Part shown: positions 21,264 to 39,508 of the stretch, in pieces
Layout: every line of letters begins with the position of its first letter
Numbering within the stretch: position 1 is the first letter of the stretch
Assembly (NCBI GenBank): GCA_003695105.1
Contig: RFIZ01000017.1
Span: 1-45,060 of the forward strand
Reading direction: 5' to 3'
Length of the DNA: 45,060 bases
Source: Fidelibacterota bacterium
GTDB taxonomy: Bacteria > Fidelibacterota > Marinisomatia > Marinisomatales > J089
Program-made: the position numbers and the translations under genes
The notes under the pieces: generated by a model
The model's input: the letters and a program-made list of their open reading frames with translations, nothing else
What the model was told of the DNA's origin: nothing
The model's database searches: none

Positions 21264-23249
21264 TTATTTAACCCGGGTCACTTTCCCGGTAAAATCTTTT
21301 GGTCCGGCTTCGATGCGGTAGAGGTAGGTTCCCGAACCGACCAGCTGACCCCGATCATTGCGGCCGGTCCACACGATAGAAGTCAATCCCGGAGACAGGG
21401 TCCGGATCGGCCAGGTTCGGACCCGGCGACCGTTCAGATCCCAGATGGAAACGGATACGGCCTGCTCCCGGTTCGTCAGAATAGGAATGGTCAGCGTGTC
21501 ATGAAAGGGATTGGGAAATTGTTGTCCGACGTAGAGGTCCGATGTCAATGCTTTATAACTTGAATCGGGGATGGCAGTAAAACGCAGGGCCTGGAGATTG
21601 GCTCCCGGTGCCACGACTGAGATTTGCAGCCATACCTGCCCGGCCGGCAAATCCGTTTCCTGGCGAACCACCTTCCAGTCATCCCAGCCCCCGGTGGCGG
21701 TACTCTCCACCAGGGGAATCACCGTTTCTCCGTTGGCATATAAGCGGAAGGCACCGCTGCCGTCCGGACTGGCGAGGGTCCATTCCACGGCATAGTGTCC
21801 CCCATAGGAGATTTCCACCGTGTACCCCAGCCATTCCTGGGCATTCATCCAACCCACATAATAGGGAAAACCGGTTAGCGTGGCCGATTTCCCGATATCC
21901 ACTCCGTCATTGCGATAGACCCAGCCCTGATTGCCCACATTGTTGGGGGCCGAGCCGGTATTTTGATATTCATGATCGCTGTACGCCACACCATTGGCAC
22001 CCAGATCGTACTGGGCGGCATAAAGAGTTCCGGGTAAAACATGGTCGGTGAACGCGTGGGGAGTGCGGAAAAAATCCTCCCGGAAGAGGGCATCTGCCAT
22101 ATCCGGGCGATAGGTGCAACTATCCACATTGAGGTTGTCCGCCATCCGGAACAGGGCGCTTCGGGCCGATTCGTGGGAAGGCCGCGGTCCGGTGTGATTG
22201 AAATAATCCAGCACTGCCTGATAGTCCGGGTATAAAGGCGCCGAATAGAAGCAGGAAATGCTGCGGAGTTTTTTATAGGTCCACACATTCCAGCCCACGC
22301 CGTTGTCTTCCATCAGACGAATGGCTGACCGAATCCAATGGGTGGAATTTTCCCCGAACTCTCCCATCCAGAGGGGAACCCGGTAGGCTTGCCGGAAATT
22401 GAGTAAATATTGGAGTCCACTCTGAACATTGGGGCGCCAGTACCAGTGGAAAGCATACCCCATGTTGGTATCGAAAGGCGGGGTCAATCCGGCAAAATCA
22501 GTGGCGTACCAATTACCTTCCACCCACAGCAAATGATGGGTGTCCACCTCCCGGATGGCGTTGGTGATCCGCATGTACAAGGCCCGCATCTGTCCCGTGG
22601 TGACGCCGCTCGGCAGGACCGGTTCATTGATCAGGTCATAGCCGCCGATCCAGGTTTCGTCGCGGTACCGCCGGGCCAGAGCCCGCCAGAGAGCCACGGT
22701 CAGGTCCTGGTCATCAGAATTTAACCACAGTTCCGCCGTGCCGGGACTGTCACTGATCGGTCCCGGATTTTGACTCCCCGGCGCCGCATGGAGATCCAAA
22801 ATCAGATAAAGCCGATTGGACCGGCACCAGGCCAGGACCGAATCGATGACCGCAAATCCGTAGCTGGTGGTATCTATCTGACCCTGGGCATCCAGGAAAA
22901 ACCGGTAATGCATCGGCAGCCGAACCGAATTGAATCCCATGGCCGCAATCCGGTCGATATCCTGCCGCCGGACGTAATTCGATCGATACCGTTGAAAAAA
23001 TTCCTCCGTTTCCGCTTCCGTCAACAGTTTTCGGATCGAATCACGAATGGCCGTTGCGGAACCGAAACCGGGGAAATTCAACATATAGCCTTCGGGAACC
23101 AGCCAGCCTCCCAGTCCGATGCCCCGGAGGAGGACCGGTGTCCCATTGCCGTCCACTACCTGACCGTCCAGGTTATGAAGATAGCCCGTCTGGCCGCCCA
23201 GAAGGGATACGAGAACGCCTGCAGTCAGGATGCGGACCGGCAGGTTCAT
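21264..23249 (-). CDS. Glycoside hydrolase family 5 (exo/endo-beta-glucanase-like) + CBM6/35-like module + T9SS CTD
   Basis: Start at M36 of the track ORF (ATG 23249-23247, ATGA overlap with the GH16 stop), giving MNLPVRILTAGVLVSLLGG. GH5 motifs GIGLGGWLVPEGYM, acid/base DLINEP, nucleophile WMGEFGEN. CBM-like block YAAQYDLGANGVAYSD...GGWDDWKVV. CTD QQFPNPFHDTLTIPI...GTYLYRIEA. Confidence 0.85.
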   Translation of the reverse strand: MNLPVRILTAGVLVSLLGGQTGYLHNLDGQVVDGNGTPVLLRGIGLGGWLVPEGYMLNFPGFGSATAIRDSIRKLLTEAETEEFFQRYRSNYVRRQDIDRIAAMGFNSVRLPMHYRFFLDAQGQIDTTSYGFAVIDSVLAWCRSNRLYLILDLHAAPGSQNPGPISDSPGTAELWLNSDDQDLTVALWRALARRYRDETWIGGYDLINEPVLPSGVTTGQMRALYMRITNAIREVDTHHLLWVEGNWYATDFAGLTPPFDTNMGYAFHWYWRPNVQSGLQYLLNFRQAYRVPLWMGEFGENSTHWIRSAIRLMEDNGVGWNVWTYKKLRSISCFYSAPLYPDYQAVLDYFNHTGPRPSHESARSALFRMADNLNVDSCTYRPDMADALFREDFFRTPHAFTDHVLPGTLYAAQYDLGANGVAYSDHEYQNTGSAPNNVGNQGWVYRNDGVDIGKSATLTGFPYYVGWMNAQEWLGYTVEISYGGHYAVEWTLASPDGSGAFRLYANGETVIPLVESTATGGWDDWKVVRQETDLPAGQVWLQISVVAPGANLQALRFTAIPDSSYKALTSDLYVGQQFPNPFHDTLTIPILTNREQAVSVSIWDLNGRRVRTWPIRTLSPGLTSIVWTGRNDRGQLVGSGTYLYRIEAGPKDFTGKVTRVK

Positions 23250-24286
23250 TTCAGTAACAGAACCGGTACAGTGGGACCGGAAAGGCGGGATCCGTAGCGG
23301 AGGAGGTAGATTCCGCTCTCCAGCGGGCGACCGAACCGGTCGGTCCCGTCCCACCGGATCAGGGGCGCTTCGGTGGACAGAGCCGTGACCGATTTTCCCA
23401 ACAGATTGTAAATGGTGACCGTCCCCTCCCTGCCCGTGACCGGAATGGTCAGGGAGCGATTGAACGGATTCGGATAGGGGGGCGAAAGTCGATCCGGGAG
23501 CAGCAGACCCGAATCCTCACTCTTCAGGGGACCCCCCGAATACCCCGTGTTGACCGGATCGGTCAGACACAGGATCATCTGGCCATCCTGGAAAACCACA
23601 TTTTCCGGAATAAAATCACAATTATTCCCATCCCAGGTGTGGGTGGCCTTTTGCCAGCGCATGATGTCGAAATAATCGAACGGGTCCTCCCAGGCCAAAC
23701 GAAACTGGTTGGCGGATCCTGCATTTCCACTGTCCGGATCATAGGTGTAATAGCGGACCCAGTCGTAGAAGGCATAGACGGGCAGGATGGAATCGTTGAA
23801 GGTCCCGGCCCAATTGACGTCGGCCGGTTGCCAGATATTCATCATCAGTTTTTGACTGTACACCAGTTCCCCGACGTGGGATCCCACCTGAACCGCCACC
23901 TGAGCACTGTCGATGAACCAGGCCACATAATAGGGCGTCCATTCAATGGCATATACATGGTAGGAATCGCTGGGATTGAAATCAGTGGTGGTGGTGGCCA
24001 CGTGGTGAACCTGTCCCGGCGTGATCACATTCCACTGAATCTGGTGGTCGTACCTTCCCAGGTATTCGATATCAATTTCGTTCCAGTGTCCGATCCAGTC
24101 CGGGTCGTTGTCATGATAGGTGAAAAAAGACGACACCACTCCGCTCCCCGGAGCAAACCGGCAGCGCACTTCAAACCGACCGTATAGAAAAGACTCCATC
24201 GTTCGCAGTTCTCCCCCCCGATAGGGCTTGGCCCCGAGACCGGTTGCCAGCCAGATCACCAGGAACCCGAGGAATTTCTTTTTCAT
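23246..24286 (-). CDS. Glycoside hydrolase family 16 (laminarinase/lichenase-type beta-glucanase) + T9SS CTD
   Basis: Signal peptide MKKKFLGFLVIWLATGLGA. GH16 catalytic motif WNEIDIEYLG (E-x-D-x-E). YHVYAIEWTPYYVAWFID is typical of the family. CTD PPYPNPFNRSLTIPV...GIYLLRY. Confidence 0.88.
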   Translation of the reverse strand: MKKKFLGFLVIWLATGLGAKPYRGGELRTMESFLYGRFEVRCRFAPGSGVVSSFFTYHDNDPDWIGHWNEIDIEYLGRYDHQIQWNVITPGQVHHVATTTTDFNPSDSYHVYAIEWTPYYVAWFIDSAQVAVQVGSHVGELVYSQKLMMNIWQPADVNWAGTFNDSILPVYAFYDWVRYYTYDPDSGNAGSANQFRLAWEDPFDYFDIMRWQKATHTWDGNNCDFIPENVVFQDGQMILCLTDPVNTGYSGGPLKSEDSGLLLPDRLSPPYPNPFNRSLTIPVTGREGTVTIYNLLGKSVTALSTEAPLIRWDGTDRFGRPLESGIYLLRYGSRLSGPTVPVLLLK

Positions 24287-25749
24287 GGATTCATCCTCCG
24301 ACCGTAGTTGAGACGATGGTCATCCGTCAATTGCGGAAAGGACGGTGTCACCACAGGATAGGGGGCGTACTGTTCCGTGACCATCATGGGAATTCCGGTA
24401 ATGGAAAGTTGATTGAATTTACTCACATCGATTTCAATCTGGTCCGAATATCGTTCCTGGAGGCTGTCAATGACAGCCGTAAAAAACCGCAGATCACTGA
24501 GCTTCGGGTCTTTTCGTTGCCGGAGAGACGCTTTCATCCATTGGGCCCGGTAAAAATCACGCCACATGGCCTCGTTTTGGACCACACTGGGGTGCCGGTC
24601 CAGGCCTTCGCGGTAGGCCGCCTGTGTAAGAAAATAATCCCGAATCAGATCGGCGACGGCGTCCCGGAATTCTTCCGCAAAATGACCGGCAGGAATGTTT
24701 TTGGAACGGAATACCAGAGGATGGGTACGGATCAGCTCCCGGTAGCGGCCCACGGTCCAGGGTTCACCATCCAGGGTAAAAAAGATCTCCTCCGCTCCCA
24801 CTTCCGGCAGATCCTGTACCGAGGGGGGCGGCTGGAGTTCGGCGTCCAGATTCCAGAGAGATTGTTGTAACGCCTGCTGTTTTTCTTGCGCACTACGCAG
24901 GTAAAGTTTCTGGGCCCGGCGGGCCATCCGGAAAAAGGTTTCCGGCTGAAACTCCAGCCGGTGTCCGGACATGATCTCTCCGGCGAAGGATTCATAGGCC
25001 CGCTGAGCCGCCTGGTCCTCCAGGTATCGCCGGGCCGTCTCCCACCGTTCCTGCCGCTGGGATTCGGTGACTGCCAGTCGTTCCGTCCAGCCCGCCACTT
25101 CCAGGACCAGATAGCGCTGATCCCCGGTTACCAGCGGACCCAGGATCGCTCCCTGGTGCCAGGGAACGGAATACAGGGTATCCCGAAGGCCCCGGGTATT
25201 CAGGTCTTCCCAGCGGATGATCTTGGTGGGAACCGTATCGCCCGGATAGGCTTCAGCGTAGAGATCCGCCAGGGTTCGATGACGGTTGAGGGTCTGATCC
25301 AACACCCACAAAGCCGCTGTATCCGAGGGCAGGGACAGGTAATGGAGCCGGTAGGTGCGGCCCATGAGGTCCGCCAGTTGCCCGATCGCGGCCGAGTCCA
25401 CCCTGACCGCCCGGGTCCCGTGCCGGTGATACAACCACGCCCGCATGGCCTGTTCTTTACGGCCCTGAAGGGTTGCCTCCACCACCGCCGGCAGCCGGAT
25501 CGTATCACCGGCAAGAGACAGCAGTTTTTCCCCAATCAGGGAATTGAGGATAATGGTTTTGGAGACCGGGGTATTGGTACGGCAATAGGCGGGACGAGGG
25601 GTGTATTCCGCCCGGAAAAGGAAATCCTGGGTGGTGATGATACGGTCACCCACCCGGGCCAGTACATCCAGTTCCAGATCAGGGCGGGAACAGGCCGTGA
25701 ACCAGAGGGCCAGAATTCCGGCCAGCCGAATTATTTGAGGTAGACGCAT
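24283..25749 (-). CDS. Lipoprotein, SurA/PpiD N-terminal chaperone-like (no rotamase motif seen); function unknown
   Basis: Lipobox LALWFTAC. VLARVGDRIITTQDFLFRAEY...IILNSLIGEKLL resembles the SurA_N-type chaperone domain. The rest is helical-looking with no recognisable catalytic motif. ATGA overlap with the GH16 start. Confidence 0.35.
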   Translation of the reverse strand: MRLPQIIRLAGILALWFTACSRPDLELDVLARVGDRIITTQDFLFRAEYTPRPAYCRTNTPVSKTIILNSLIGEKLLSLAGDTIRLPAVVEATLQGRKEQAMRAWLYHRHGTRAVRVDSAAIGQLADLMGRTYRLHYLSLPSDTAALWVLDQTLNRHRTLADLYAEAYPGDTVPTKIIRWEDLNTRGLRDTLYSVPWHQGAILGPLVTGDQRYLVLEVAGWTERLAVTESQRQERWETARRYLEDQAAQRAYESFAGEIMSGHRLEFQPETFFRMARRAQKLYLRSAQEKQQALQQSLWNLDAELQPPPSVQDLPEVGAEEIFFTLDGEPWTVGRYRELIRTHPLVFRSKNIPAGHFAEEFRDAVADLIRDYFLTQAAYREGLDRHPSVVQNEAMWRDFYRAQWMKASLRQRKDPKLSDLRFFTAVIDSLQERYSDQIEIDVSKFNQLSITGIPMMVTEQYAPYPVVTPSFPQLTDDHRLNYGRRMNP

Positions 25750-27761
25750 TTGGCGGAAGTTACTTGATCGGCGGTCGCCAGACGAATAAAATAGAGACCG
25801 GAACCGATGGCCCCGGGCGACCAGGTGATTTCCAGTTCCTCCCCAGGGCTGATGCCTGTCTGAAGTTGGTCCACCAATTTCCCCCGGAGGTCATACACTG
25901 CCAGATGATAGGGGCTGCCCGGTCGCACCTCCATCCGGATAGTGGTCCTCCCGTTGAAGGGATTGGGATACACTCCCAGGCGAAACGATTCCGGCAGCCA
26001 GCTGCCTCTTCCCGGTTGAAGGCCCAGGGAGTGTCCCTCCTGGTACACCTCCAACCCGATCGTCAGGTAGACCAGGGGGGCATTCCAGTTGATGGCGATT
26101 TCATTGGAGGCATAACTGCAGAAATCATCCACGTAGGACAGGGGTGGTCGATCGGAGGGATAGGTACAACCGTCCTGCTGCCCGGGGTTGGGTCCGCCCA
26201 CCAGCAAGCCCGGGACCGGTTCGGGAACGACATCGGCTTCCGATTGATTGTGGTGGGGGTGCTGGGGCGAAAAGGAGCCTATTCCCGTGACAAAGCAATA
26301 GCCCGTGGGGTTACGCCCCAACAGATAATCCAGATTGGCCTGAGCCGCTTCGGCATAAACCGGATCGCCCGAAACGGCGTAGGCATTGAGCAGGACCATA
26401 CCCTGGTTGGCGGCGACGGCATTACTGCCCCAGACGAAATCACTCGCCTGTCCTCCCATGGGACATCCATAGGGCGAAGATTCCATCCGGGTCACCAGAG
26501 TCGTGCCCAGAGCCAGAAGGCGTTCCCGCACCCAGGCCGTATCGACGGCACCTGCCACCTGGGTACGGTGACGGGCCAGGGAGAGTACCCCCAGTGTCCG
26601 GACATCGCCCCACCAGGGAACGGTGAGGGAAGGATGGTTGGCGGGCGCTCCGGTGAGAGTCAAAAAGCTATCCTGCCCGGTGGTTATAAACAGCTCCATG
26701 GCCGCCCAGTCCCTTTCATCGGTGGCATCGTTGTCGCCGTATTCACCGGTGTGGATATCGGGATCGAATTGTTGATTGAGAGCGGTCTGGTTGTAGAGAC
26801 TGTCCGGATAGTGCCGTCCCCAACGCCAGGCAGCCAGAGCCGCCGTCAGACAGGAATCGGCCAGCCCCGGCAGAGCTGTCGGAAACCGGCCGACAACCCG
26901 GGAAGCCACCGCCATGACGGCGGCAAAATCCAGGGTGGCCGGCGTACTTTTCTGGACCACGTACCGGTCCTGGGCCGCTTCAGCCGGCATCATCACCGAT
27001 TCGAATTCGGGGTTGGTCAGTTTGTGATACACCCCACCGTCATCGGGATCCTGCATGGCCAGCATCCACCGCAGGTTCCAGAGAGTTTCATCCAGAAGGT
27101 CGGGCAGGTTGTTGTCCGTTTCGGGAATGGGAACGGTGAGAGTATCCACGTAGTCGGGATAATGTTCCAGCGCCGCCAACAGAGTGTAAGTCGATATACC
27201 GGAATTGACCACATATTTATTGAAGTCACCGGCATCATACCATCCCCGGGGAGCCTGAATCACCGTGCCTTCCGGTCGGGCGGCGGTGGCGGCCGAAGCG
27301 TGGACATACACGGTTGTATCGGGGTGTCCCTCGGCCCGGAACCAGAGTCCGGCATAAGCGGGTTCCAGCGGAGTGGAGGCTCGTTGGTAATAATAGCCCT
27401 TGATCACCGTGCGCAGCAAATTCCAGTAGCGGTGCGCACTAATTGACACCGGCCAAGACGTTTCCCCGTTGGCCAGTACCAGATAGTCACCCGGTTGGGT
27501 CCAGGCGGAAAAATCCAGTTTATGGGTGATGGAACCGGTCAGATTCCAGTACTCGGCTCCCCCGGCCGTACCCGTCCAGACCGTGTCTCCCCCGGACGTG
27601 ACCAGGTAGAAATTCGAAACCGTCGGAGTGGTAATCACGGCTATTTTGGCCTGGCCGGGATAGAATCCCACCTGGTTCACGGCGATGGCGGGAACCTGGG
27701 AATACAGAACCACCGAACAGCAAATCACCCAGGCAGGGAACAGCAAATACGACCACCTCAT
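25731..27761 (-). CDS. Glycoside hydrolase family 9 endo-beta-1,4-glucanase with N-terminal Ig-like (CelD_N) domain + T9SS CTD
   Basis: IAVNQVGFYPGQAKIAV (CelD_N-like). GH9 motifs GWYDAGDFNKY, WMLAMQDPDDGGVYHKL, DFVWGSN, HHNQS, LVGGPN, YASNEIAINWNAPLVY. CTD GVYPNPFNGRTTIRM...GLYFIRL. Confidence 0.9.
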   Translation of the reverse strand: MRWSYLLFPAWVICCSVVLYSQVPAIAVNQVGFYPGQAKIAVITTPTVSNFYLVTSGGDTVWTGTAGGAEYWNLTGSITHKLDFSAWTQPGDYLVLANGETSWPVSISAHRYWNLLRTVIKGYYYQRASTPLEPAYAGLWFRAEGHPDTTVYVHASAATAARPEGTVIQAPRGWYDAGDFNKYVVNSGISTYTLLAALEHYPDYVDTLTVPIPETDNNLPDLLDETLWNLRWMLAMQDPDDGGVYHKLTNPEFESVMMPAEAAQDRYVVQKSTPATLDFAAVMAVASRVVGRFPTALPGLADSCLTAALAAWRWGRHYPDSLYNQTALNQQFDPDIHTGEYGDNDATDERDWAAMELFITTGQDSFLTLTGAPANHPSLTVPWWGDVRTLGVLSLARHRTQVAGAVDTAWVRERLLALGTTLVTRMESSPYGCPMGGQASDFVWGSNAVAANQGMVLLNAYAVSGDPVYAEAAQANLDYLLGRNPTGYCFVTGIGSFSPQHPHHNQSEADVVPEPVPGLLVGGPNPGQQDGCTYPSDRPPLSYVDDFCSYASNEIAINWNAPLVYLTIGLEVYQEGHSLGLQPGRGSWLPESFRLGVYPNPFNGRTTIRMEVRPGSPYHLAVYDLRGKLVDQLQTGISPGEELEITWSPGAIGSGLYFIRLATADQVTSAKCVYLK

Positions 27762-27782: not shown

Positions 27783-28832
27783 TTAAAAGGACAGACCGAC
27801 GGTGTAGGCGTGGGTGTTCCCGATGATGCCAATATCCTTGAAGGCATAATCGATCCGGACACTGCGGTTTCCAAAGAGAAACCATTCCAGCCCGACCCCG
27901 AAGGTGGGCCCGTATTCGGAGCGGTCCATGAACAGGGCTTTGGCCCCGGCCCGGACAGACAAAACGGCCTGCCCCGGAATCCGGATGGAATATTCCCCAC
28001 CCACATTCACCGATTCGGAGTTGTTGTTGGGATGGAGGGCGTCCACGGCCAGGGTGAGGGTTTGAAAATCGGAATAGACGGGCTGGACCGAAACCCCGAT
28101 GCGGAACATCAACGGCAATTCCCAGGCCTGGAGTCGGAACTGACCCGGAACATCGGAAAAGTTTCCGTTTTCGTTCTGTTTGATGTCAATCGGGACCAGG
28201 AGATCGATGCCGTCATATTTCATCCGGGTACCGTAGTTGGAGATGCTCATGCCGATTTTCAGGCCGTGGCTCTGATCTCCGTGAGGTGCGAAAAACCGGG
28301 TGGTGACCAGCACACCCAAATCCAACGCCAGGGCCCGGGCCTGGGACCGCCAGATGCGGGAGGAAATGTATTTGACGGAACTGCCGAAGGCAAACCAGGG
28401 CGCCAGTTTGCGGGCAAAGGACAAATTGACTGCATATTCATTGGCCGTGAATTGTTCTCCCGTTCCCTCCTGGCTTTCCAGAGACGTCACTTCCATATTG
28501 CCGTAACTGATCTGGCTCATACCCACTCCCAGGGTACCGATCCCGGTCAAATGAGTCGCCACCCCGGTGAAGGACGTGTTGATATCGATGAACCAGGGTT
28601 GATAAACGAACTGAGCTTCACTCCGGCGGATGTACGCCAATCCGGCCGTGTTCCAGTACATGGAGGACAGGTCGTGGGCCACGCTGACGTAAGCATCTCC
28701 CATGGCCGAAGCGGCGCTTCCCATACCGATCTCAAGGAAGTTGGCCGCAGTGGTCCCCACCCGGTACGGGCGCTGGGACCAAACCGGAGCCGTCAGGAGG
28801 AAGATCAGGATGAGGGAACACAGTTTTTTCAT
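27783..28832 (-). CDS. PorV/PorQ-family outer-membrane beta-barrel (second copy in the window, inside the glycan operon)
   Basis: Start at M38 of the track ORF (ATG 28832-28830, ATGA overlap with the upstream stop), giving MKKLCSLILIFLLTAPVWSQ. Strong PorV-type N-terminus GTTAANFLEIGMGSAASAMGDAYVSVAHDLSSMYWNTAGLA. Ends in an OMP-type terminal ...YTVGLSF. Confidence 0.75.
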   Translation of the reverse strand: MKKLCSLILIFLLTAPVWSQRPYRVGTTAANFLEIGMGSAASAMGDAYVSVAHDLSSMYWNTAGLAYIRRSEAQFVYQPWFIDINTSFTGVATHLTGIGTLGVGMSQISYGNMEVTSLESQEGTGEQFTANEYAVNLSFARKLAPWFAFGSSVKYISSRIWRSQARALALDLGVLVTTRFFAPHGDQSHGLKIGMSISNYGTRMKYDGIDLLVPIDIKQNENGNFSDVPGQFRLQAWELPLMFRIGVSVQPVYSDFQTLTLAVDALHPNNNSESVNVGGEYSIRIPGQAVLSVRAGAKALFMDRSEYGPTFGVGLEWFLFGNRSVRIDYAFKDIGIIGNTHAYTVGLSF

Positions 28833-31800
28833 TTGATCACCGCAAATTTTCCAAGTTTCTCTTTCCCGGTCCGCCACGATTTCACATGGTAGAGGTACAT
28901 TCCCGCGGCGATCTCCAGGTTTTCCCGGGTCAGGAGGTCCCAATGAACCAGGCCGTTGTCGGGAGGATTGTCCACCTGAATTTCATCTACCAGCACACCG
29001 CTGACGGTAAAGATTTTGATCGTACATTGGGCCGGTATATGCGTAAAAATCAGACGCCGCCGCTGGTTGAGAGAGGCATTGGCCAGGGCGGGTTCCATGG
29101 CGTTGGTGGCAATGTAGGGATTGGGAACCACCTTGATCCGGTCCATTTCGTCGTTCAGAGAAGATTCATCGACGGAATCGGTGGCATGGACGGTGAAGCG
29201 GAGGGTGTCCGTCACCCAGAAGGGACGTTTGAAATCGACCTGGTATTGATCGCCCGGCCGGGGATAATTGAGCGTGTCGATATTGGTGAAATCGATGATG
29301 AAGGCTGTCCCGCCCCAGCGACCGTTCGTGGTCAGGGGACCCACCAGGACCCGGTCGATGAATCGATCATACACGCCATTGCGATTGACGTCGTGAACCA
29401 TGATATCCATGAGTTCGTAATTCCCGGACGAATCCACAAAGGACTGATTCTGTACGTAGAAGTCCACCGAGGCCCCCGGAAGCAGTTCCGTGTAACTCAA
29501 CCGGTGGTCGTTTTCATCCCGGACGTTGGACCGGTTGGTAATCTGACCGGTGTAGGCAGCCGGATCACTGGAAAAAATAATGGCATACCGCCAGGGCAGG
29601 AGGTTCGATTCGCGTACCGTGGGTGTCACATGGATATCACCGCTCCCGACAACCCAGCCGGAATGGGCATAATCGAAGATGGGCGTTTCCACCGGCAGGT
29701 CCAACTCCAGCCGGATGCCATCAAACACATCCGTGGCTACACCGTTCCGGTTGAGGGCATAATAATCGAGCGTGTCATCGTAGACTATATTTTCTCCCAC
29801 ATAGCGATCCCGGTCTTCGTGGTATACTACCGAGCTGTCCATTTCATCAAATACGGTGAAACTGTCATTGGTGTAGGACAGGCCGTGGGCGTAGTTCGAC
29901 AGGGTGGCCACCGTGTCCAGGCCGAAAGTCAGGCGGTAGCGGTGATTTGGTTTCAGGGAACCCCGGGCCAGAATTTCGGCCGTATAGGTCCCGCTTCCGA
30001 TCAGGTCCGGATTGTCTTCCGGAACGATTTCCGGCGGGATATAGCCGGCAGCCGGAGGATGGGGCACCACGATCGCCACGTTTTTCCCGTAGCCGATGAC
30101 ATTTTCATTCTCATCCAGTTCGATGACCACGTTGTTTTCGGACGGAGCAATGCCCGGTCCAATATCCGGTGCACCGTAGTCGTAGGCCACCACGGCATAG
30201 TAATAGGTGCGGCCGTTTTGCACCGACCGGTCGATGAAATGGTGTGTGATTCCGGTTTCGGTCCCCAGGTTGTAGCCCACCCCGTTGACCAGACCGAAGT
30301 CGGTGAATCCGAAGATGTCATCCTTTAAATCACACTGGTAGATGGGCAATTTATAGGTCGGGGTGCCATACAGATCCGTAATGATCTCCGGATCGGACAT
30401 TTTTTTATCCGTTGACCGGTAGACTTTATAGCCTTCGAAATCATTCACATTACCCACGAAAGGATCGCGGGTTTTGGTGTCGGCAATGTCATCCCAGGTG
30501 AGAATGACCTCACCGTCCCCTTCCGTGGCGGTCAGGGTCGGCATCCGCGGCGGCTGGGCGAAGCGGTAATCCTTTTCATAGATGACCTGCACGATTCGTT
30601 TCAGTTCGAACAGGGCCGGCGCGGTATGGTCCTCGGAATTCAGCCCCGGCAGTTGATCATAGGAATGCAGTTCCGACATGGATATCCGTTCCGTCTGCCC
30701 CTGATACAGGGGAAAGGGACCGGAGGCAAAGACTTCAATCAGGTTGGTGATACTGCCGGAGTAGTCTTCCAGCGAATCGATTCCGATCAATTCCCACATG
30801 GATTCATCCCCCCGGAACCAGTGTTGATCCGAACTGTGACTGGGGACGGCAAAGAGTCGGAAGGAAGTCAACCCCACCATGTCGGATTCGGACACGTCTG
30901 TCCAGGCAAAGTTGGGTTCACTGCCGACTCCTTCGACAAAATCCGGTTTGTGGTTCCCCTCACCCTCATCGGGCCCGGTGTAATTGATATCCCCCGGGGC
31001 AACCCCATCCAGACCGACGTCATCGCCGGCATATTCAGAAATCTGATAGATGCCATCTCCATTGATATCTTCCCCGTCTTCCCAGTCCTGATCCTCATCG
31101 GCATCCCAGTGCTCATGCAGGTCCTCTTCGGTCAACTTATAGACATCCAAAAATTGCTGCAGATCGGAATAGCCGTCGGTGGGGCCTACCAGAGTTTGGG
31201 CGACGTTATCCCGCTTCTCATCGGTAATTCCGTCCTCATCGTTATCTATTCCGTCGTAGGGCAACCCCGGACTTTCCAGGTAGGCAAAGCCCATGGTGCC
31301 GGGAGTCAATCCGGCGGCTCCCAGACCATTGACGTCCCATGAATAGGCCAGGTCGATCTGGGTGTCGAAAAAACCCAATTCATCATTGGCGCCGTCGCCG
31401 CCGATGGCATTGTCCACCCAGTAGCCAAAAGCTGCATCCCGGATATCGTAATCCGATACATTGGCGATGGTGTATTCCCAGAAGATGGCATCCCGGGCCT
31501 GGGGATTGTTCCACTGAAAACCGCGGGTCTCCACCCGGATACCCAGCCCCCCCCAGGGTTTGCCGCGCTGGATGGTGACATCGGGTTTTAAATCACCGAT
31601 ATATCGACCGGGACGTGGATAGTAGCGGACAAAATCTTCCGGTCCCAGATATTCCTGGTCCTGGGCGTCATTGACCACAAAATAGGTTTCCAGATCGGCA
31701 TACCTCACTCCCCGACCAAACCGGCCGTCCCATTCTCCGGGCCACTTTTTGGTGAATCCCGCCGCCGGCCAGCCCCCTACGGGCCAGGAATCGGGTTTGT

Positions 31801-32290
31801 TGCTCATGGCCGGATATTCCCCGTTTTCGTTGAAGTACCCGAATACGGGATAAAAGCCCCATTCCACGGTTCCGGTGGGATCCCGGTCCATTTCTTCCCG
31901 GTAACTGGTTTGGAGGTAGTAGAGGGTGTGGGTATTGGGATCGGTATAGATATCCAGCAAATCTGTGGTGGGGATCGTGTCCACCGTCGTGGCGTCCCCG
32001 TCGCCTTTGATATACACTTTGGCTCCCACCAGCAGGGCCACGCCGTCCAACATCTTGGTGCCTTCGTACGTGTTAGGCCAACGGGACACGTCTTCCCGGG
32101 GCCAGTCGGACAACTCGGTGGTATTCCGAAAATAGAGAAATACCCGGTTCCCGGTCATGTATCCTTCCCGTTCGGCGGCGATGTCACCGGCGGGGTCATC
32201 CGGACCTTCATACGGTCGTCCCTGACCCCAGAGCCCCGTCAGGAACAGGAGACCGGATAGCAATGCTGCAAAGGATGTGAGTTTCTTCAT
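28829..32290 (-). CDS. Large secreted protein with acidic DxDxDG Ca-binding-type repeats and a variant T9SS CTD; function unknown
   Basis: 1153 aa with signal peptide MKKLTSFAALLSGLLFLTGLWGQ. Central acidic block DGIDNDEDGITDEKRDN ... DADEDQDWEDGEDINGDGIYQ ... DDVGLDG (about nt 30910-31255). C-terminus VVPNPYIATN...GMYLYHVKS...KFAVIK. Starts 3 nt after the TonB-dependent transporter stop. Confidence 0.6.
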   Translation of the reverse strand: MKKLTSFAALLSGLLFLTGLWGQGRPYEGPDDPAGDIAAEREGYMTGNRVFLYFRNTTELSDWPREDVSRWPNTYEGTKMLDGVALLVGAKVYIKGDGDATTVDTIPTTDLLDIYTDPNTHTLYYLQTSYREEMDRDPTGTVEWGFYPVFGYFNENGEYPAMSNKPDSWPVGGWPAAGFTKKWPGEWDGRFGRGVRYADLETYFVVNDAQDQEYLGPEDFVRYYPRPGRYIGDLKPDVTIQRGKPWGGLGIRVETRGFQWNNPQARDAIFWEYTIANVSDYDIRDAAFGYWVDNAIGGDGANDELGFFDTQIDLAYSWDVNGLGAAGLTPGTMGFAYLESPGLPYDGIDNDEDGITDEKRDNVAQTLVGPTDGYSDLQQFLDVYKLTEEDLHEHWDADEDQDWEDGEDINGDGIYQISEYAGDDVGLDGVAPGDINYTGPDEGEGNHKPDFVEGVGSEPNFAWTDVSESDMVGLTSFRLFAVPSHSSDQHWFRGDESMWELIGIDSLEDYSGSITNLIEVFASGPFPLYQGQTERISMSELHSYDQLPGLNSEDHTAPALFELKRIVQVIYEKDYRFAQPPRMPTLTATEGDGEVILTWDDIADTKTRDPFVGNVNDFEGYKVYRSTDKKMSDPEIITDLYGTPTYKLPIYQCDLKDDIFGFTDFGLVNGVGYNLGTETGITHHFIDRSVQNGRTYYYAVVAYDYGAPDIGPGIAPSENNVVIELDENENVIGYGKNVAIVVPHPPAAGYIPPEIVPEDNPDLIGSGTYTAEILARGSLKPNHRYRLTFGLDTVATLSNYAHGLSYTNDSFTVFDEMDSSVVYHEDRDRYVGENIVYDDTLDYYALNRNGVATDVFDGIRLELDLPVETPIFDYAHSGWVVGSGDIHVTPTVRESNLLPWRYAIIFSSDPAAYTGQITNRSNVRDENDHRLSYTELLPGASVDFYVQNQSFVDSSGNYELMDIMVHDVNRNGVYDRFIDRVLVGPLTTNGRWGGTAFIIDFTNIDTLNYPRPGDQYQVDFKRPFWVTDTLRFTVHATDSVDESSLNDEMDRIKVVPNPYIATNAMEPALANASLNQRRRLIFTHIPAQCTIKIFTVSGVLVDEIQVDNPPDNGLVHWDLLTRENLEIAAGMYLYHVKSWRTGKEKLGKFAVIK

Positions 32291-32293
32291 GCG

Positions 32294-34972
32294 TTAAAAT
32301 TCCACTCCCACACTCAGTTTAATACTCCTTGGGGCGGAGTAGGCGGACGGATCGTGAATCCGGTCCTCATAGGTGTTGAAATTGCTGCGATGACCGGCCA
32401 GATCCGTGTCCTGAATGATGGCCGTATACGCCCTGCCGGTCTGACCGTTGACGTTGATTTCGTTTAAGCGGTCGAACAGGTTCCGTACCAGCAACTCAAA
32501 TTTCAGCCTGAAGTGACTGCCCAGGGTTAGTGCATAATGGGCGGTCATATCTACCGTATATCGGGTCGGGCGATAATCATTGTTGGGATACAGGTTGATC
32601 CGGCTGATGAGCCGTTCACCCAATGGCGTGTATGTATAGGGCATGCCCGAATTGTAATAGCCCGTAATGGAAACACCCCCGCGGCCCCGCTCATAGCTGA
32701 CCGTCGCATTGAAGGTATTCCGCTGGTCCCAGTTCAGCGGTATCAGACGATTCACCGGGTCCGTCTGGCTGCCTTCGCGATCAAAGGCCTCCCGGGGATA
32801 ATCCGCATTCCCGCGGGTGTACTGAAGCGTGTAATTCACAAAAATGGCCAGCGGACGCCGGGTGAAATCATATTTTACCTCCAGACCCCGTACATTGCCG
32901 TAATCCTTGTTGGTGTATAACCCGTACTCGATTTGATTGAAAGTGCTGATGATCTTCGTGCTCAACAGATCGTAAATATCCCGGTAGAACAACGAGACCT
33001 CCAGTCCCATTCCCCGGGACAGTTCCTGCCACAGACCGATTTCGTAGGAGACTGTTTTTTCGGCTTTGACCTGAGGATTGCCCATGACGGTGGAATAATC
33101 ATCCGGCCCGACCCGCAGGCTGTGATTCTGATACAGCGCGTAAAAAGGCGGCATCTGGAAAAAATGGCCGTAGCTGAAATGGAGCACAGCCGCATTCCCC
33201 AGCTGGTAGGCCAGACCGAATCGGGGCGACCACTGGAATTTGGGGTCGGCAGGGACCGGATGGGACATGGAATCGGGATTGTCGAATATTTGTTGATTGC
33301 CGGGATTTCGCCGTTGGGACGGATATGTGGCGGCCGGATCGAAATAATCGTACCGCAGCCCCAGATTGATCACCATATCGTCGAATTCCATCTTGTCCTG
33401 GATATACGCCGACTGTTCCACCGGTTTCACATGATAGATATCGGCGTAGATGGTGCTGTCCGGCAGGATGATCGGCTCGTAGAGGTCGAATTCGTTGGAG
33501 GTGCCATAATATTTATTGCGGATTTGGTGCCAGGTATTGGTGATGTCATGGTGGATTCCCAGATATCCCGCCTTCAAACTGTGGCGGGGATTGGCCTGCC
33601 AATTGAGGTCGAACTTCACCGTGGCATCCCGGGTCTCCCGGTAGCTGTGATCCTTGCTTTGCCCACCAGTCAGAAAACCCGGTCCATAGCTGTTGAAATA
33701 TTTATCGTGGACATACCGCGCATCCATGGGATCCTTGTATACATAGGTGCCGCCGTAGTTATAGGTCTGGGAAAATTTGAATTCGTAGAACAGGGCGTTG
33801 GACAGCATGTGATTGACCTGCACGGCCAGCATATGAGCATCCCGAACCGAATGGGGACGCCCGTTGGGATTGTACTTGTAAAAATGATCGTACCACCGCC
33901 AGATGTCGTTGTTGCGGGTATAGAGCAGGTTCCAGCGGAAATGTTTCCACAGATTGAAACTCAGCTTTCCCATCAGAGATTGATTCTGAGTCACGTTCAT
34001 GGGGACCAGGTTTCCGCTGCCATTATGTTCGGAAATCCAATCCAGGGAATCGGGAGAAGTGAAATCACTGTAATCATCGACCAGAAAGCGTTCAATACCA
34101 TTCAGATGTCCCTGATTGTCCTGCAACCGGGAATTGATAAAAAAGGTTATCTTGTCACCCCAAACCGGTCCGCTCAACTGAAACTTCACATCCGTATTCC
34201 GGTTGATATCCGGCTGATCAATTCCGATGAAAATATCTTTATGCGGTGTAAAATAATTCTCTACGGCACCGGAAACGGATCCGTGGAACTCCCGGGAACC
34301 GCTTTTGGTTACCTGATTCACAATGCCGCTCATGGCCCGGCCGTATTCAGCATTGAAGGTTCCGGTGATGACTTCCAGATCCTGGACGGCGTCCGCTTCC
34401 AGATCAACGGTGGACCCGGTACCGCCTACGACTTCATCCACCACCAGACCATCGATCATATAGGAAACTTCCGTGTTGCGACCGCCCCGGAAATGGCCTT
34501 CCACCACGCCCGCCTGCATCTGGATGATTTCACCGATATTTTCCACCGGCAGGACATCCATTTGATCCGCGGAGATATTCTTCGTGGTACCCGTCTGGTC
34601 TTTCTTTTGGGAAATGGCACTGGCCGTCACCACCACTTCCTGCCCTTCCAGAACGGTGGGCTCCAGTTCGGCTTTGAGATAGGCCGTCCGGTTGACGGAG
34701 ACTTTGATCCCTTCCATCCGCAGTTCGGTGTAGCCGATCATCTGGGCGATGACCGTATACGTCCCCGGGGCGACATTGAGGATGAAGAAGGAGCCGTTTT
34801 CGTCGGTGGCAGCCCCGATTCCCATGCCTTCCAGAAATACATTGACGCCCGGCAGGGGTTCCTGGGTATCCTTATCCACTACCGTACCGGCAATCTTGCC
34901 GGTGGTCTGTCCCGCCAGGGGTACCAGAACCAGGGCCAGGAGCAAACTAAAAAACGAGATTCTGTATTTCAT
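32294..34972 (-). CDS. TonB-dependent outer-membrane transporter with N-terminal carboxypeptidase-regulatory-like domain
   Basis: 892 aa. Signal peptide, then GKIAGTVVDKDTQEPLPGVNVFLEG...GSFFILNVAPGTYTV (CarboxypepD_reg). Plug region ISADQMDVLPVENIGEIIQMQAGVV. Beta-barrel ends in ...IKLSVGVEF with terminal Phe. Confidence 0.9.
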   Translation of the reverse strand: MKYRISFFSLLLALVLVPLAGQTTGKIAGTVVDKDTQEPLPGVNVFLEGMGIGAATDENGSFFILNVAPGTYTVIAQMIGYTELRMEGIKVSVNRTAYLKAELEPTVLEGQEVVVTASAISQKKDQTGTTKNISADQMDVLPVENIGEIIQMQAGVVEGHFRGGRNTEVSYMIDGLVVDEVVGGTGSTVDLEADAVQDLEVITGTFNAEYGRAMSGIVNQVTKSGSREFHGSVSGAVENYFTPHKDIFIGIDQPDINRNTDVKFQLSGPVWGDKITFFINSRLQDNQGHLNGIERFLVDDYSDFTSPDSLDWISEHNGSGNLVPMNVTQNQSLMGKLSFNLWKHFRWNLLYTRNNDIWRWYDHFYKYNPNGRPHSVRDAHMLAVQVNHMLSNALFYEFKFSQTYNYGGTYVYKDPMDARYVHDKYFNSYGPGFLTGGQSKDHSYRETRDATVKFDLNWQANPRHSLKAGYLGIHHDITNTWHQIRNKYYGTSNEFDLYEPIILPDSTIYADIYHVKPVEQSAYIQDKMEFDDMVINLGLRYDYFDPAATYPSQRRNPGNQQIFDNPDSMSHPVPADPKFQWSPRFGLAYQLGNAAVLHFSYGHFFQMPPFYALYQNHSLRVGPDDYSTVMGNPQVKAEKTVSYEIGLWQELSRGMGLEVSLFYRDIYDLLSTKIISTFNQIEYGLYTNKDYGNVRGLEVKYDFTRRPLAIFVNYTLQYTRGNADYPREAFDREGSQTDPVNRLIPLNWDQRNTFNATVSYERGRGGVSITGYYNSGMPYTYTPLGERLISRINLYPNNDYRPTRYTVDMTAHYALTLGSHFRLKFELLVRNLFDRLNEINVNGQTGRAYTAIIQDTDLAGHRSNFNTYEDRIHDPSAYSAPRSIKLSVGVEF

Positions 34973-35049: not shown

Positions 35050-37659
35050 TTATTTCATCAGTATCATCTTTTTCGTCTGGACGAAATCACCGGCGCGCAA
35101 CTGATAGAAATACACTCCGGAAGCTGCCTGGGAACCATTCCATTTCACGGTGTAGGTGCCCGCCTTCTGGACATGATTCACCAGTTGATCCACTTCCTGT
35201 CCCATCAGGTTGTAGATGGTGAGAGTGACCTCTCCCGCCCGGGGAACCACATACTCGATACTGGTGGTCGGGTTAAAGGGGTTCGGGTAGTTGTTCCGCA
35301 GGGCGTACTGTTGCGGCTGGAGCGTTTCATTGCCCGTGGAAAGAGCCACGTCAGTCGTATCTCCGATCCAGGTGTAGGCCCATTCTTCCGGCGTCTGCCA
35401 CTGATGGTCCGTGCTGAACGAGGAGAAACCGACATTTCCTTCCCAACCGGCGCCGTCGTTGTCATGGAAGTACAGGTCGATCGGAACCCGCATGCCATTC
35501 TGAGGATGGAAACGTGGATCACCTCCGGCGGCGGCAATGGCATCCAGGGGTACGCGCACTTCGAAGACGTAGTCCGGATTGAATCCTTCGAAGTAATAGT
35601 CGGCGGAATCCGGAGTGTAGAGGGCGTATCCACCCGGATTATCGAACTGGAAGACCTGTTCATTGGCATACATGATGTAGTCCGGTTCATCGCCCCGCAG
35701 GATGGAGGTGTGTTTGGGACCGCGCCAGTCATAGAGACCGATGAAGAGCTGGAAGGCATCCTGGTCCCACCAGTTTCCGGCGCCAAAGGAATAAACATTA
35801 TCCACAACATCTCCGGCCAGATAGAGATAGTCATCATCGATGGCCATAAATACCGTTCCGGTCAGGTCATTGTCATCATCCACCGATCCCACGGGAACAA
35901 ATCCGTTGGAAGGCGAGATGGTGAAGGGCATGATGCCGCTGCTGTACCATTCGGTCAAATCGCCATCGGCGGCAAAGGAAGCCGGAGGATTGAGGGAAAT
36001 GGTGGGAATGCCCCGGGCCGTATTGGTCACGGGAGAGGCCGAAACGCCCGGCTCACTCACATTGGCAAATTCATCGGCACAGGTCACGGCATAGTAGTAG
36101 GTGAGGTCGGTATCCACCAGTGGATAATTCAACCAGTGGATGACGGTCTGAATATCTTCACCCACACCCGATTCCACCAGTTCCACACCCGGCGCCGACA
36201 CATCGGTGATGGGAGACTGACTGGCATAGACATTATACGTCTCTCCCGATTCTCCGGGTACGTCCTGCCAGATCACCAGGTTGTAGTAGGTGCCTACCAC
36301 GCCGGACACACCCTGAGGCGGAGCCGGAGCTTCCACATCGATGGCCAGCGGCATGGTGGCAATTTCATCCAGATCGATCGTCTGGTTTACGGCCGCGGTA
36401 CTGGCAATCAGCATTTTAAAGAATTTCACCCGGGAAGAGTCCATTTCACCGGGACGCATGCCCGTGCCGTCCCAGCCGCCGCTGAAACGGTCAAAACTGG
36501 ACAGGGGAATTTTGACTTCTTTCCAGGTTCCGTCATAGCCCACTTCCGTTTCGGTCAGGGTGTAGGCGGCTTCGAATTCGGAATCGGGGGTGTCATCAGC
36601 ACCGTCGCCGTCATTATCCACAAAGCCGTCGTCATCCGGATCGGCGAGGACCAGTTTCAGATCGCCAATCCCGGCCGGGGCCTTGATCTTGAACTGGAGA
36701 CTGTCATGGGACCAGCTGTACCAGAGATTCTGGGGCGCATCCAGCGTGAACACCAGCCCGTCCCAGACGGCCCAGTCATTCGGGGGTGTATGCCAGCGAA
36801 GGGCATTGGTATTGGGCGTATAGCCGGCGCCTTCAACGATTTCATAACTGCCGCCGCCCCAGCCGGCCCAGAGGTCGACATTGGAAGGAATAGCCATACT
36901 GTTGAAAAACACCAGCGGTACCGAAGATCCCCCGGTGGCTTCCAGGTCATCCAAAACAATGGTTCCCTGGGAATAGTCCCCTTCACCGGCACCATTGATG
37001 GAGAATTCGATGGAAAAACCTTTGATCTTATCCTTGTCCAGTTGGCCATTGCCCTGTATCCCGGCCCAGCCGGTGTGATTGAACCCTTCGCCGCCCCAGT
37101 AATCGCCGGCCTCGAGGGGTATGGCGATCCGGTGCCAGCCGGGGGCATCATCCAGAATGTAATGGAAGGAATAGTAGTATTCGACTTCATTCACATCGTA
37201 GGTGGCATTTCCGTTGGGGGAATCGCTCACTTCCTGGAGATTGAAGCGTAAATGCGTGCGGGTCGGCAGGGATTGGGGAACGGCATTGTAGTACCAGAAA
37301 GAAATGGTGTCATAGGCCGACAGGTCATAGACACCATTGCTGTCCGGATTCCAGTGCTCCAGTTTGGAATAGCCGCCCCAACTTTCCGTGTTGTGCGCAC
37401 TCCAATCCAGTTGCATGGCTCCCGTACCTTCATGCACCGGGCTGGAGACATAGGTGGGTATCACCCAGCCGTAGGCTGAATCGGCATGATCGCTGGTATT
37501 GTAATGGGCGCCGAAAGTACTGACACAGCAATTCACTGAATCAAACCAGGCCCAGTAATTCGTATCTGCGGGAGCCGAATCGAAGGAATTCCAGACATAT
37601 TGGCTGTATCCAAGCGAGAGCATGAATACGGTAGCCAAGATGGGTAACCTTGATTTCAT
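35050..37659 (-). CDS. Multi-domain surface glycan-binding-type protein: two CBM-like beta-sandwich modules + FN3 + CBM9-like module + T9SS CTD
   Basis: 869 aa with a signal peptide. Trp/Tyr/Gly-rich beta-sandwich-like N-terminal repeats. FN3-like PAPPQGVSGV...YNVYAS...YYYAVTCADEFANVSEPG. CBM9-like GTVFMAIDDDYLYLAGDVVDN...WWDQDAFQLFIG...LYFHDNDG. CTD NNYPNPFNPTTSIEYVV...GVYFYQLRA. AAGGAGGAAG lies 5 nt upstream of the ATG. Confidence 0.6.
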   Translation of the reverse strand: MKSRLPILATVFMLSLGYSQYVWNSFDSAPADTNYWAWFDSVNCCVSTFGAHYNTSDHADSAYGWVIPTYVSSPVHEGTGAMQLDWSAHNTESWGGYSKLEHWNPDSNGVYDLSAYDTISFWYYNAVPQSLPTRTHLRFNLQEVSDSPNGNATYDVNEVEYYYSFHYILDDAPGWHRIAIPLEAGDYWGGEGFNHTGWAGIQGNGQLDKDKIKGFSIEFSINGAGEGDYSQGTIVLDDLEATGGSSVPLVFFNSMAIPSNVDLWAGWGGGSYEIVEGAGYTPNTNALRWHTPPNDWAVWDGLVFTLDAPQNLWYSWSHDSLQFKIKAPAGIGDLKLVLADPDDDGFVDNDGDGADDTPDSEFEAAYTLTETEVGYDGTWKEVKIPLSSFDRFSGGWDGTGMRPGEMDSSRVKFFKMLIASTAAVNQTIDLDEIATMPLAIDVEAPAPPQGVSGVVGTYYNLVIWQDVPGESGETYNVYASQSPITDVSAPGVELVESGVGEDIQTVIHWLNYPLVDTDLTYYYAVTCADEFANVSEPGVSASPVTNTARGIPTISLNPPASFAADGDLTEWYSSGIMPFTISPSNGFVPVGSVDDDNDLTGTVFMAIDDDYLYLAGDVVDNVYSFGAGNWWDQDAFQLFIGLYDWRGPKHTSILRGDEPDYIMYANEQVFQFDNPGGYALYTPDSADYYFEGFNPDYVFEVRVPLDAIAAAGGDPRFHPQNGMRVPIDLYFHDNDGAGWEGNVGFSSFSTDHQWQTPEEWAYTWIGDTTDVALSTGNETLQPQQYALRNNYPNPFNPTTSIEYVVPRAGEVTLTIYNLMGQEVDQLVNHVQKAGTYTVKWNGSQAASGVYFYQLRAGDFVQTKKMILMK

Positions 37660-39308: not shown

Positions 39309-39354
39309 GAATGCTCTCCTTCTTACCTCTGCTCGTACTTCATCTCCCCGTCAG

Positions 39355-39371
39355 AAGCAAACATCAAGCCA
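39355..39371 (-). promoter_or_regulatory. Sigma-54 (-24/-12) promoter for the SGLT-to-GH5 operon
   Basis: Minus-strand sequence TGGCTTGATGTTTGCTT, i.e. TGGC-N7-TTGC with exact consensus spacing (TGGCAC-N5-TTGC). The GC of the -12 element is 49 nt upstream of the ATG at 39308. A sigma-54 enhancer-binding protein is encoded next door. Confidence 0.75.
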
Positions 39372-39426
39372 AAAGGAGTTTGGTCTCCGATCTGATGCTG
39401 CTCTCTCCCTTTTCCCGACAAGAACC

Positions 39427-39456
39427 ACCGGCGGGAAGCAGGCGGAGGCCGCCGGT
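39427..39456. repeat. Inverted repeat ACCGGCGG-N14-CCGCCGGT (terminator of the regulatory operon or protein-binding site)
   Basis: 8-bp perfect arms, hand-checked. An alternative inner hairpin GGCGG-AGG-CCGCC (39441-39453) competes for the right arm. Lies between the response-regulator stop and the sigma-54 promoter. Confidence 0.3.
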
Positions 39457-39471
39457 CCTTTCAGGCGGAAT

Positions 39472-39486: not shown

Positions 39487-39508
39487 TAACCGTTATAGAA
39501 ACGATAAG

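Follow-up and report, generated by a model that had tools for sequence, protein, structure and literature searches.

The window analysed here is a 45,060-nt stretch of DNA from a Fidelibacterota bacterium (contig RFIZ01000017.1, positions 1 to 45,060), and the gene in question lies on its minus strand at 27783-28832. These positions are filled exactly by an open reading frame (ORF) for a 349-aa protein that begins MKKLCSLILIFLLTAPVWS|QRPYRVGTTAANFLEIGMGSAASAMGDAY...MYWNTAGLA (N-terminal sequence MKKLCSLILIFLLTAPVWSQRPYRVGTTAANFLEIGMGSAASAMGDAY), with signal-peptide cleavage predicted after VWS, which would leave an N-terminal Gln. The ORF, profile searches and an AF2 model mark the product as a 14-stranded outer-membrane barrel of the PorV/PorQ family, the target barrel of this analysis. 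Directly upstream lies the gene of a 1153-aa secreted protein (28829-32290, minus strand), which was recognized from its ORF, a Sec signal peptide and its homologues and is called BIG below. According to the ORF coordinates, the two genes overlap as ATGA at 28829-28832 on the minus strand, where the ATG of the barrel (28832-28830) overlaps the TGA of BIG (28831-28829). The next gene upstream (32294-34972, minus strand) encodes a TonB-dependent transporter (TBDT) of 892 aa, in which profile matches identify a CarboxypepD_reg N-terminal domain, a plug and a barrel. TBDT, BIG and barrel, referred to here as the triad, stand within a longer minus-strand order of solute-binding protein, histidine kinase, sigma-54 response regulator, symporter, a carbohydrate-binding module (CBM) 9 protein with a type IX secretion system (T9SS) C-terminal domain (CTD), TBDT, BIG, target barrel, a family 9 glycoside hydrolase (GH9) with CTD, a lipoprotein, GH16 with CTD, and GH5 with CBM6 and CTD.

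The assignment of the target barrel to the PorV/PorQ family is secure and far beyond chance. The NCBIfam model PorV_fam (NF033709) matches it over its full length with 200.2 bits (cutoff 90, E 6e-59), spanning residues 27-349 and model positions 1-326, and the Pfam PorV model (PF19572) reaches 44.3 bits (cutoff 27). All 29 aligned relatives also match PorV/PorQ family models. When the PDB was searched with a profile of these 29 clade relatives, Flavobacterium johnsoniae PorV (6h3i_F) was the sole meaningful sequence match (E 3e-16). The AF2 model of the target barrel (pLDDT 79, pTM 0.74) has 14 strands and an N-terminal hatch with short helices, and Foldseek placed the PorV structures 8gl6_F and 6h3i_F at the top (E 2e-14, TM 0.65), followed by TodX and FadL (TM 0.48-0.55). 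A FadL-type transporter was considered and rejected, with FadL/Toluene_X (PF03349) at 16.8 bits, below its cutoff of 29.7, and the PorV family match clear. A search of the target barrel for PorP/SprF (TIGR03519) gave no match at E ≤ 0.01.

Within the family, the scores for the individual members all stay below their cutoffs. The PorV equivalog (NF033710) gives 94.4 bits (cutoff 250), matching the N-terminal 200 residues only, with a best E among the 29 relatives of 6e-30; the PorQ equivalog (NF033711) gives 89.9 bits (cutoff 220) and the PorV2 equivalog (NF052325) 57.8 bits (cutoff 325). As this pattern is common to all 29 clade members, the profiles support a clade distinct from PorV, PorQ and PorV2, and by the same scores the target barrel is a member of the PorV/PorQ family, yet none of these three in the strict sense. 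At 90% identity, the clade falls into more than 2200 clusters; the 120 top-ranking ones all share 56-63% identity with the target barrel and come from metagenome-assembled genomes (MAGs) labelled Marinimicrobia/Fidelibacterota, KSB1, Calditrichota and Ignavibacteriae. Across these phyla the barrel alignment has a mean column identity of 68%, an unusually high value for a barrel of the outer membrane. Among the invariant motifs are RVGTTAANFLEIG, YWNPAGLA, QEGTGE, MSISNYG, WELPL and DALHPNNNSES, and the conserved stretch includes the longest predicted loop of the barrel (residues 200-240), which AF2, modelling the barrel alone, placed with low confidence.

The window holds a second PorV/PorQ-family barrel, and each of the two is coupled to a CTD-bearing protein encoded upstream. 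On the plus strand, a PorU profile identifies a PorU-like C25 peptidase of 1532 aa with a C-terminal CTD-like domain (7565-12163); the PorU model is its best match at 200 bits, below the cutoff of 420. It is followed by a divergent, PorV2-like barrel of 334 aa (12160-13164, plus strand), assigned by family profile, and the two genes overlap as ATGA at 12160-12163, just as those of BIG and the target barrel do. As a single sequence, the 334-aa barrel reaches 32.6 bits with PorV_fam (cutoff 90), finds nothing in a PDB search, and compares uninformatively with the target family (probability 1.4%). It comes from a divergent family of modest size, with 198 representative clusters at E ≤ 1e-3. A profile of 30 of its members aligns full-length to the target family (hhalign 99.7%, E 3e-26); PorV_fam is matched by 30/30 of these members and the PorV2 model by 26/30 (best E 2e-33), and the family fits PorV2 better than PorV or PorQ. 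The 334-aa protein is likely the general T9SS partner barrel. The T9SS context in the window consists of the PorU-like peptidase and at least five CTD-bearing proteins; the core genes for SprA/Sov and PorKLMN are not in these 45,060 nt. Predicted cleavage leaves an N-terminal Gln on the target barrel (VWS|Q), on BIG (LWG|Q) and on the porU-side barrel (LWC|Q); in Bacteroidota the N-terminal Gln of such proteins is cyclised to pyroglutamate.

These results bear on a preceding sequence-only reading of the window. It had taken the target for a PorV/PorQ-type barrel and not a FadL- or OmpA-type protein, translationally coupled to the 1153-aa CTD protein, as a second family member besides the porU-coupled one and possibly as a separate clade, and on all four points the profiles, the structure matches and the ORF coordinates agree with it. 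Its description of the porU-side genes as a canonical PorU/PorV pair stands for the ATGA coupling of a PorU-like gene to a barrel, but that barrel is a divergent PorV2-like protein and not a textbook PorV.

The family of BIG, the partner of the target barrel, counts more than 2500 clusters, every one of them labelled hypothetical and none with a Pfam domain; many come from marine metagenomes including Tara. A PDB profile search with BIG found nothing, and Pfam and NCBIfam searches gave nothing except a weak PorZ match (NF052228, 15.9 bits, cutoff 260) in the CTD region only. The possibility that BIG is the PorZ of the organism was rejected, as it is multi-copy, linked to a TBDT and without a match to the PorZ body. 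Along the protein, residues 151-750 are conserved (conservation score 0.69-0.83), residues 751-1050 form a variable beta-sandwich region (0.47-0.58), and the C-terminus is the CTD (0.74-0.81). Acidic, DxDxDG-like stretches occur around residues 346-430. An AF2 model of BIG was built from an 18-sequence alignment (66-70% identical) and shows, for residues 745-1153, beta-sandwich domains and a CTD-like sandwich.

Profile alignment places a probable CTD in the C-terminal ~104 aa of BIG (28832-29143, minus strand), where it is type-A-like with a 14-aa insert. The last ~100 residues read KVVPNPY…IKIFTVSGVLVDEI…GMYLYHVK…GKFAVIK. PF18962 and TIGR04183 do not match BIG directly. Over their whole length, the BIG C-termini could be aligned, as a profile, with CTDs from the window itself, those of its hydrolases, its CBM9 protein and its PorU-like protein (hhalign 89%, E 2e-6). 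Compared with these, BIG has the conserved 14-residue insert, in the stretch MEPAxANxxLNQRRR. Weak matches in the CTD region of BIG homologues were obtained with FlgD_ig (5/9) and CHU_C (3/9). The modelled CTD matches the NucA CTD (8glk_D) in Foldseek with a TM of 0.66 normalised to the target. In its sequence, the C-terminus of BIG resembles a T9SS type-A CTD.

The conservation of this CTD sets BIG apart from the hydrolases of the locus. Pairwise identity among BIG homologues is 0.69 in the CTD vs 0.56 in the body, while GH5 and GH16 show 0.32 in their CTDs vs 0.50-0.56 in their bodies. The CBM9 protein is an intermediate case (CTD 0.54 vs body 0.45), and retention on a barrel in place of cleavage is conceivable for its CTD as well. 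The BIG CTD keeps ~0.71 identity with the window copy in loci with and without beta-glucanases; in those without, the identity of the core falls from 0.73 to 0.63 and that of the variable region from 0.42 to 0.36. A secretion signal that is cleaved after use should hardly be under stronger constraint than the rest of its protein, and the CTD of BIG may rather serve as a permanent binding handle.

Gene neighbourhoods were compared across other genomes. A scan of one genome per species returned 481 barrel relatives, and the proteins of the window were compared against the best 80 loci plus five others. Of the 81 barrel genes with at least 600 bp of upstream sequence, 75 are preceded on their own strand by a BIG homologue whose end is no more than 400 bp away. 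Four of the six exceptions hold BIG and TBDT in another order or with an insertion, and a fifth (L011) is a short contig showing a BIG fragment at its edge only. Where at least 7 kb of upstream sequence was available (48 loci), the module always includes a TBDT. BIG and barrel are separated by -38 to +195 bp in 43 related triads, and the divergence of the TBDT tracks that of the barrel (r = 0.81). Eight genomes contribute two to three loci each among the 80 retrieved, and one locus (L072, 3461-18859) contains two complete triads in tandem with differing gene orders. Three loci (L003, L004 and L008) are arranged as two BIGs with near-identical CTDs, one barrel and a TBDT (~2.7-13.9 kb in L003 and L004).

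The hydrolases beside the triads vary, from GH16/GH5/GH9/GH2 to GH92 with GH125 and to GH130 with GH47 and a fucosidase, which correspond to beta-glucan or mannan/N-glycan sets. In L003, GH92 and GH125 have no recognised CTD, and BIG and the barrel are kept. Since the hydrolase set varies between loci, the barrel is tied to the pair of TBDT and BIG and not to the substrate or the hydrolases. The linkage to a TBDT and a CTD protein in loci resembling polysaccharide utilization loci (PULs) of several phyla, as anticipated by the sequence-only reading, is borne out by these counts. The barrel also appears dedicated, as that reading had supposed, although to the BIG-TBDT transporter module and not to a substrate or to the hydrolase cargo of the operon. 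The CTD-bearing hydrolases had been taken for its conserved partners, which does not agree with their variation nor with the lack of any CTD-bearing hydrolase in L003; a cargo link to them is further disfavoured by their CTDs, which evolve faster than the catalytic bodies, whereas the CTD of BIG is its best-conserved part.

A frequent fourth member of the module is the 488-aa lipoprotein encoded at 24283-25749 on the minus strand (lipobox FTAC), which its family profile assigns to the PrsA/SurA type. This profile matches the PrsA foldase 4wo7 (E 3e-5), and SurA_N or rotamase Pfam matches were obtained in a few relatives. Of 72 loci, 42 have a homologue immediately after the barrel gene and a further 9 have one no more than 8 kb away; another is present in the cultured Caldithrix abyssi (P0281). 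By sequence, the protein looks like a dedicated periplasmic chaperone.

The remaining genes of the locus, all on the minus strand, were assigned by profile matches. Upstream of the TBDT, an 869-aa protein with CBM9 and CTD (35050-37659) is a probable T9SS-exported glycan binder; such a protein is frequent in this position, with homologues in 22 loci. Downstream of the barrel are a GH9 cellulase with CelD_N and T9SS CTD (25731-27761), a GH16 beta-glucanase with T9SS CTD (23246-24286) and a GH5 cellulase with CBM6 and T9SS CTD (21264-23354). The GH5 ORF as listed, beginning with GTG, shares ~109 nt with the end of the GH16 gene, and the true start is probably an internal codon downstream of this GTG. 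The upstream block (37683-43741) encodes a sodium:solute symporter (37683-39308), a sigma-54 response regulator (39509-40957), a histidine kinase (40935-42413) and a solute-binding protein (42410-43741); homologues of the regulators and of the symporter also stand next to triads in L005, L016, L080 and L084. Of the features of a SusC/SusD locus, the locus has a TBDT together with carbohydrate-active enzymes, a glycan-binding protein, a regulator and a transporter of the inner membrane. The SusC model (TIGR04056) matches the TBDT at its N-terminus only, with 62.7 bits (cutoff 368), and a search for the SusD family across the proteins of the locus gave no match in any of them.

Two further observations concern the surroundings of the locus. 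A strict search for sigma-54 promoters over the whole window gave no more matches than chance. By eye, the sequence TGGCTTGATGTTTGC was found at 39357-39371 on the minus strand, ~50 bp upstream of the symporter gene and adjoining the gene of the sigma-54-dependent response regulator; this candidate promoter has the GG and GC elements of sigma-54 promoters at the right spacing and two mismatches to TGGCAC-N5-TTGC. Just downstream of the glycan locus, 16755-21098 (minus strand) encodes a 1447-aa fusion of two BcrAD/BadFG-type ATPase domains and a DUF2229 CoA-enzyme activase domain, which appears unrelated to the locus.

From the conserved triad we lean, with some reserve, towards an interpretation in which the target barrel is the cognate anchor for the CTD of BIG and places BIG beside the TBDT in an uptake module without SusD. 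BIG would pass the inner membrane via Sec and then be exported over the outer membrane by the T9SS by means of its CTD. The cognate barrel would receive it and keep it bound, as PorQ does with PorZ and PorV with PorU, so that a protein of ~125 kDa would be fixed at the cell surface next to the co-encoded TBDT. There, its conserved core and variable beta-sandwich could serve glycan capture or act as a lid, and its role would equal that of SusD and surface glycan-binding lipoproteins in Bacteroidota. The PrsA/SurA-like lipoprotein would chaperone a component of the module in the periplasm. In this scheme we infer from sequence the binding of BIG to the barrel, the retention of its CTD, its surface location, its contact with the TBDT and its role in glycan capture; binding of the CTD by the barrel is suggested by gene coupling together with the conservation of the CTD. 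The anchor interpretation is supported by the porU-side genes, because the PorU-like CTD protein is likewise ATGA-coupled to its own barrel in the same window.

Precedents for such an arrangement exist. Uncleaved CTDs keep PorZ attached to PorQ and PorU attached to PorV (PMC10202324), and the pairing of a family barrel with one CTD-bearing surface protein in Porphyromonas gingivalis is among the closest likenesses to the barrel and BIG. Unlike PorQ-PorZ and PorV-PorU, the target barrel is multi-copy and always found with a TBDT in glycan loci, its partner is not PorZ, and retention of the CTD is deduced. For type B substrates, PorP/SprF-type barrels are encoded next to the substrates, e.g. SprF with SprB (PMC10202324), and the target likewise is a cognate barrel gene directly downstream of that of a large CTD protein; it differs in its barrel family, in the type-A-like CTD, in the lack of a link to gliding adhesins and in the constant presence of a TBDT. 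In the β-barrel assembly machinery (BAM) of Bacteroidota, a surface protein is held via extracellular loops by BamG, a FadL-like barrel of 14 strands (PMC12578637). BamG belongs to BAM and not to the T9SS or a nutrient transporter, and its structure (9hiv_F) is a distant structural match at rank 30 (TM 0.44). With F. johnsoniae PorV (6h3i, 8gl6) the target shares the 14-stranded barrel and the N-terminal hatch, but the identity is ~15%, the sequence match is confined to the N-terminal two thirds, and the target is neither single-copy nor located beside porU.

Several observations weigh against the anchor interpretation. The PorV of F. johnsoniae is a carrier to which CTDs bind only transiently, and a dedicated shuttle of this kind agrees with the same genomic data. 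The 80 loci are the closest relatives of the target and were retrieved via two clade-specific motifs, and correlated divergence of the triad proteins is expected of any operon neighbours. One locus, L009 (1-7766), has a barrel without BIG or TBDT upstream, the only such case; genes for a molybdopterin oxidoreductase and a glycine cleavage P-protein precede the barrel and two Uma2-family endonuclease genes follow it, which may be due to a rearrangement or to MAG misassembly. The pairing is also not strictly 1:1, as the tandem BIG paralogues of L003, L004 and L008 are accompanied by one barrel. For residues 19-744, the AF2 model of BIG cannot be relied on (pLDDT <50; 40.7 overall), and the top Foldseek ranks of PorZ and PorU with this model were discounted, as their TM values below 0.13 are negligible.

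The main rival is a dedicated transient shuttle, in which the barrel would carry BIG from the translocon to the PorU-like sortase, the CTD would be removed, and BIG would be lipid-anchored or released; the barrel would then be its private carrier, the substrate being very large or difficult to handle. PorV acts as a carrier and binds CTDs within the translocon (PMC10994853), and individual substrates have their own cognate barrels of the PorP/SprF type (PMC10202324). Gene linkage and CTD conservation fit a carrier equally well, which also counts against anchoring. The loci with two BIGs and one barrel are easier to explain by a carrier. A shuttle, however, leaves both the constant TBDT (48/48) and the strong full-length conservation of the barrel unexplained, and in PorZ and PorU, the known examples of a CTD that is very conserved and specific to one protein, the CTD is retained. 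Overall, we regard a transient shuttle as unlikely, though as an explanation to be taken seriously. A shuttle serving the whole locus, with GH9, GH16, GH5, the CBM9 protein and BIG sharing an export or attachment lane of their own, would account for the five CTD proteins encoded around the barrel and for the CTD of the CBM9 protein being somewhat more conserved than its body (0.54 vs 0.45). It is nevertheless improbable: the barrel stays 55-62% identical while the hydrolase content changes, L003 keeps BIG and barrel beside a GH125 and a GH92 without a recognised CTD, the poorly conserved CTDs of GH5 and GH16 (0.32) are what substrates of a generic carrier would show, and a separate barrel is coupled to the PorU-like sortase.

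The two remaining explanations concern the identity of the barrel itself. The target could be the main PorV of the organism, with the porU-side barrel a PorQ/PorV2-type accessory and the adjacency to the TBDT functionally incidental. The higher score of the target with the PorV/PorQ family model (200 vs 33 bits for the porU-side barrel) and PorV as the closest solved structure speak for this possibility, but several copies per genome, each in its own triad, the equal distance of the target from the PorV and PorQ equivalogs and the near-obligate linkage to BIG and TBDT make it quite improbable. Least probable of all, and in our view barely credible, is a barrel without any T9SS role, acting as a FadL-like channel or as a structural accessory of the TBDT, for uptake or for TBDT assembly. 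Such a function would draw on the FadL superfamily fold, on the FadL-like BamG, which holds the surface protein BamH outside the T9SS (PMC12578637), and on the gene for a PrsA/SurA-like chaperone in the module. It is opposed by the clear PorV/PorQ family match with FadL below cutoff, by the probable T9SS CTD of the protein encoded directly upstream, and by the T9SS sortase-like gene in the same window.

Seen as a whole, the locus resembles SusC/SusD loci in its CarboxypepD_reg TBDT, large surface protein, GHs, CBM9 binder, symporter and sensor/regulator genes, and in the occurrence of several paralogous loci per genome with differing enzyme sets. It differs in lacking a SusD gene, in having a T9SS CTD protein plus barrel as the partner instead of a lipoprotein, and in a TBDT below the SusC cutoff. 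A similar gene order is already drawn, uncommented, in PUL maps of Rhodothermus marinus (PMC9530828, PMC6987092). Its alginate PUL contains tonB, hypA (with a T9SS type A sorting domain), hypB (PorV/PorQ, 1056 nt) and hypC (1398 nt), with alginate lyases beside these triad-like genes (PMC9530828), and in its xylan locus Rmar_1070 (TBDT) is followed by the hypotheticals Rmar_1071-1073, two of which have CTDs (PMC6987092). Compared by order and annotation only, the R. marinus PULs share with the window the succession of TBDT, CTD protein, PorV/PorQ barrel, a hypothetical protein of ~465 aa and degradative enzymes. Unlike BIG of the window, the hypA CTD protein is shorter (2181 nt), and the R. 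marinus genes are drawn as hypothetical with no function proposed. In the literature on PorV with TonB-dependent receptors or PULs and on Marinimicrobia, Ignavibacteria, Calditrichota and KSB1, we found no interpretation of the triad, and no description of a PorV/PorQ clade as a standing part of SusD-less TonB-dependent glycan-uptake modules.

That the triad is near-obligate, recurs several times within a genome and keeps more than 55% identity from phylum to phylum suggests that these phyla share a machine; among its three parts is a family of more than 2500 large proteins without an annotated domain. Glycan capture in Bacteroidota is explained by SusC/SusD, and the sister phyla include very abundant ocean and sediment lineages without SusD. 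Tentatively, and with more doubt than for the anchor itself, we suggest that phyla of the Fibrobacterota-Chlorobiota-Bacteroidota (FCB) group outside Bacteroidota, namely Marinimicrobia/SAR406, KSB1, Calditrichota and Ignavibacteriota and probably Rhodothermota, could build their TBDT glycan importers with the T9SS. BIG, as a substrate-capturing lid or binding subunit, would be held by its uncleaved CTD on a transporter-docked barrel, with a private PrsA/SurA-like chaperone, and such an importer would be the counterpart of SusCD in which barrel plus CTD replace the lipid anchor. As R. marinus, which is cultured and open to genetics, has this gene order too, the proposal is directly testable. 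If the barrel does anchor BIG beside the TBDT, the T9SS would have a new role in the assembly of nutrient importers, beyond enzymes and adhesins, and the anchoring principle of PorQ and PorZ would be a widely reused building block.

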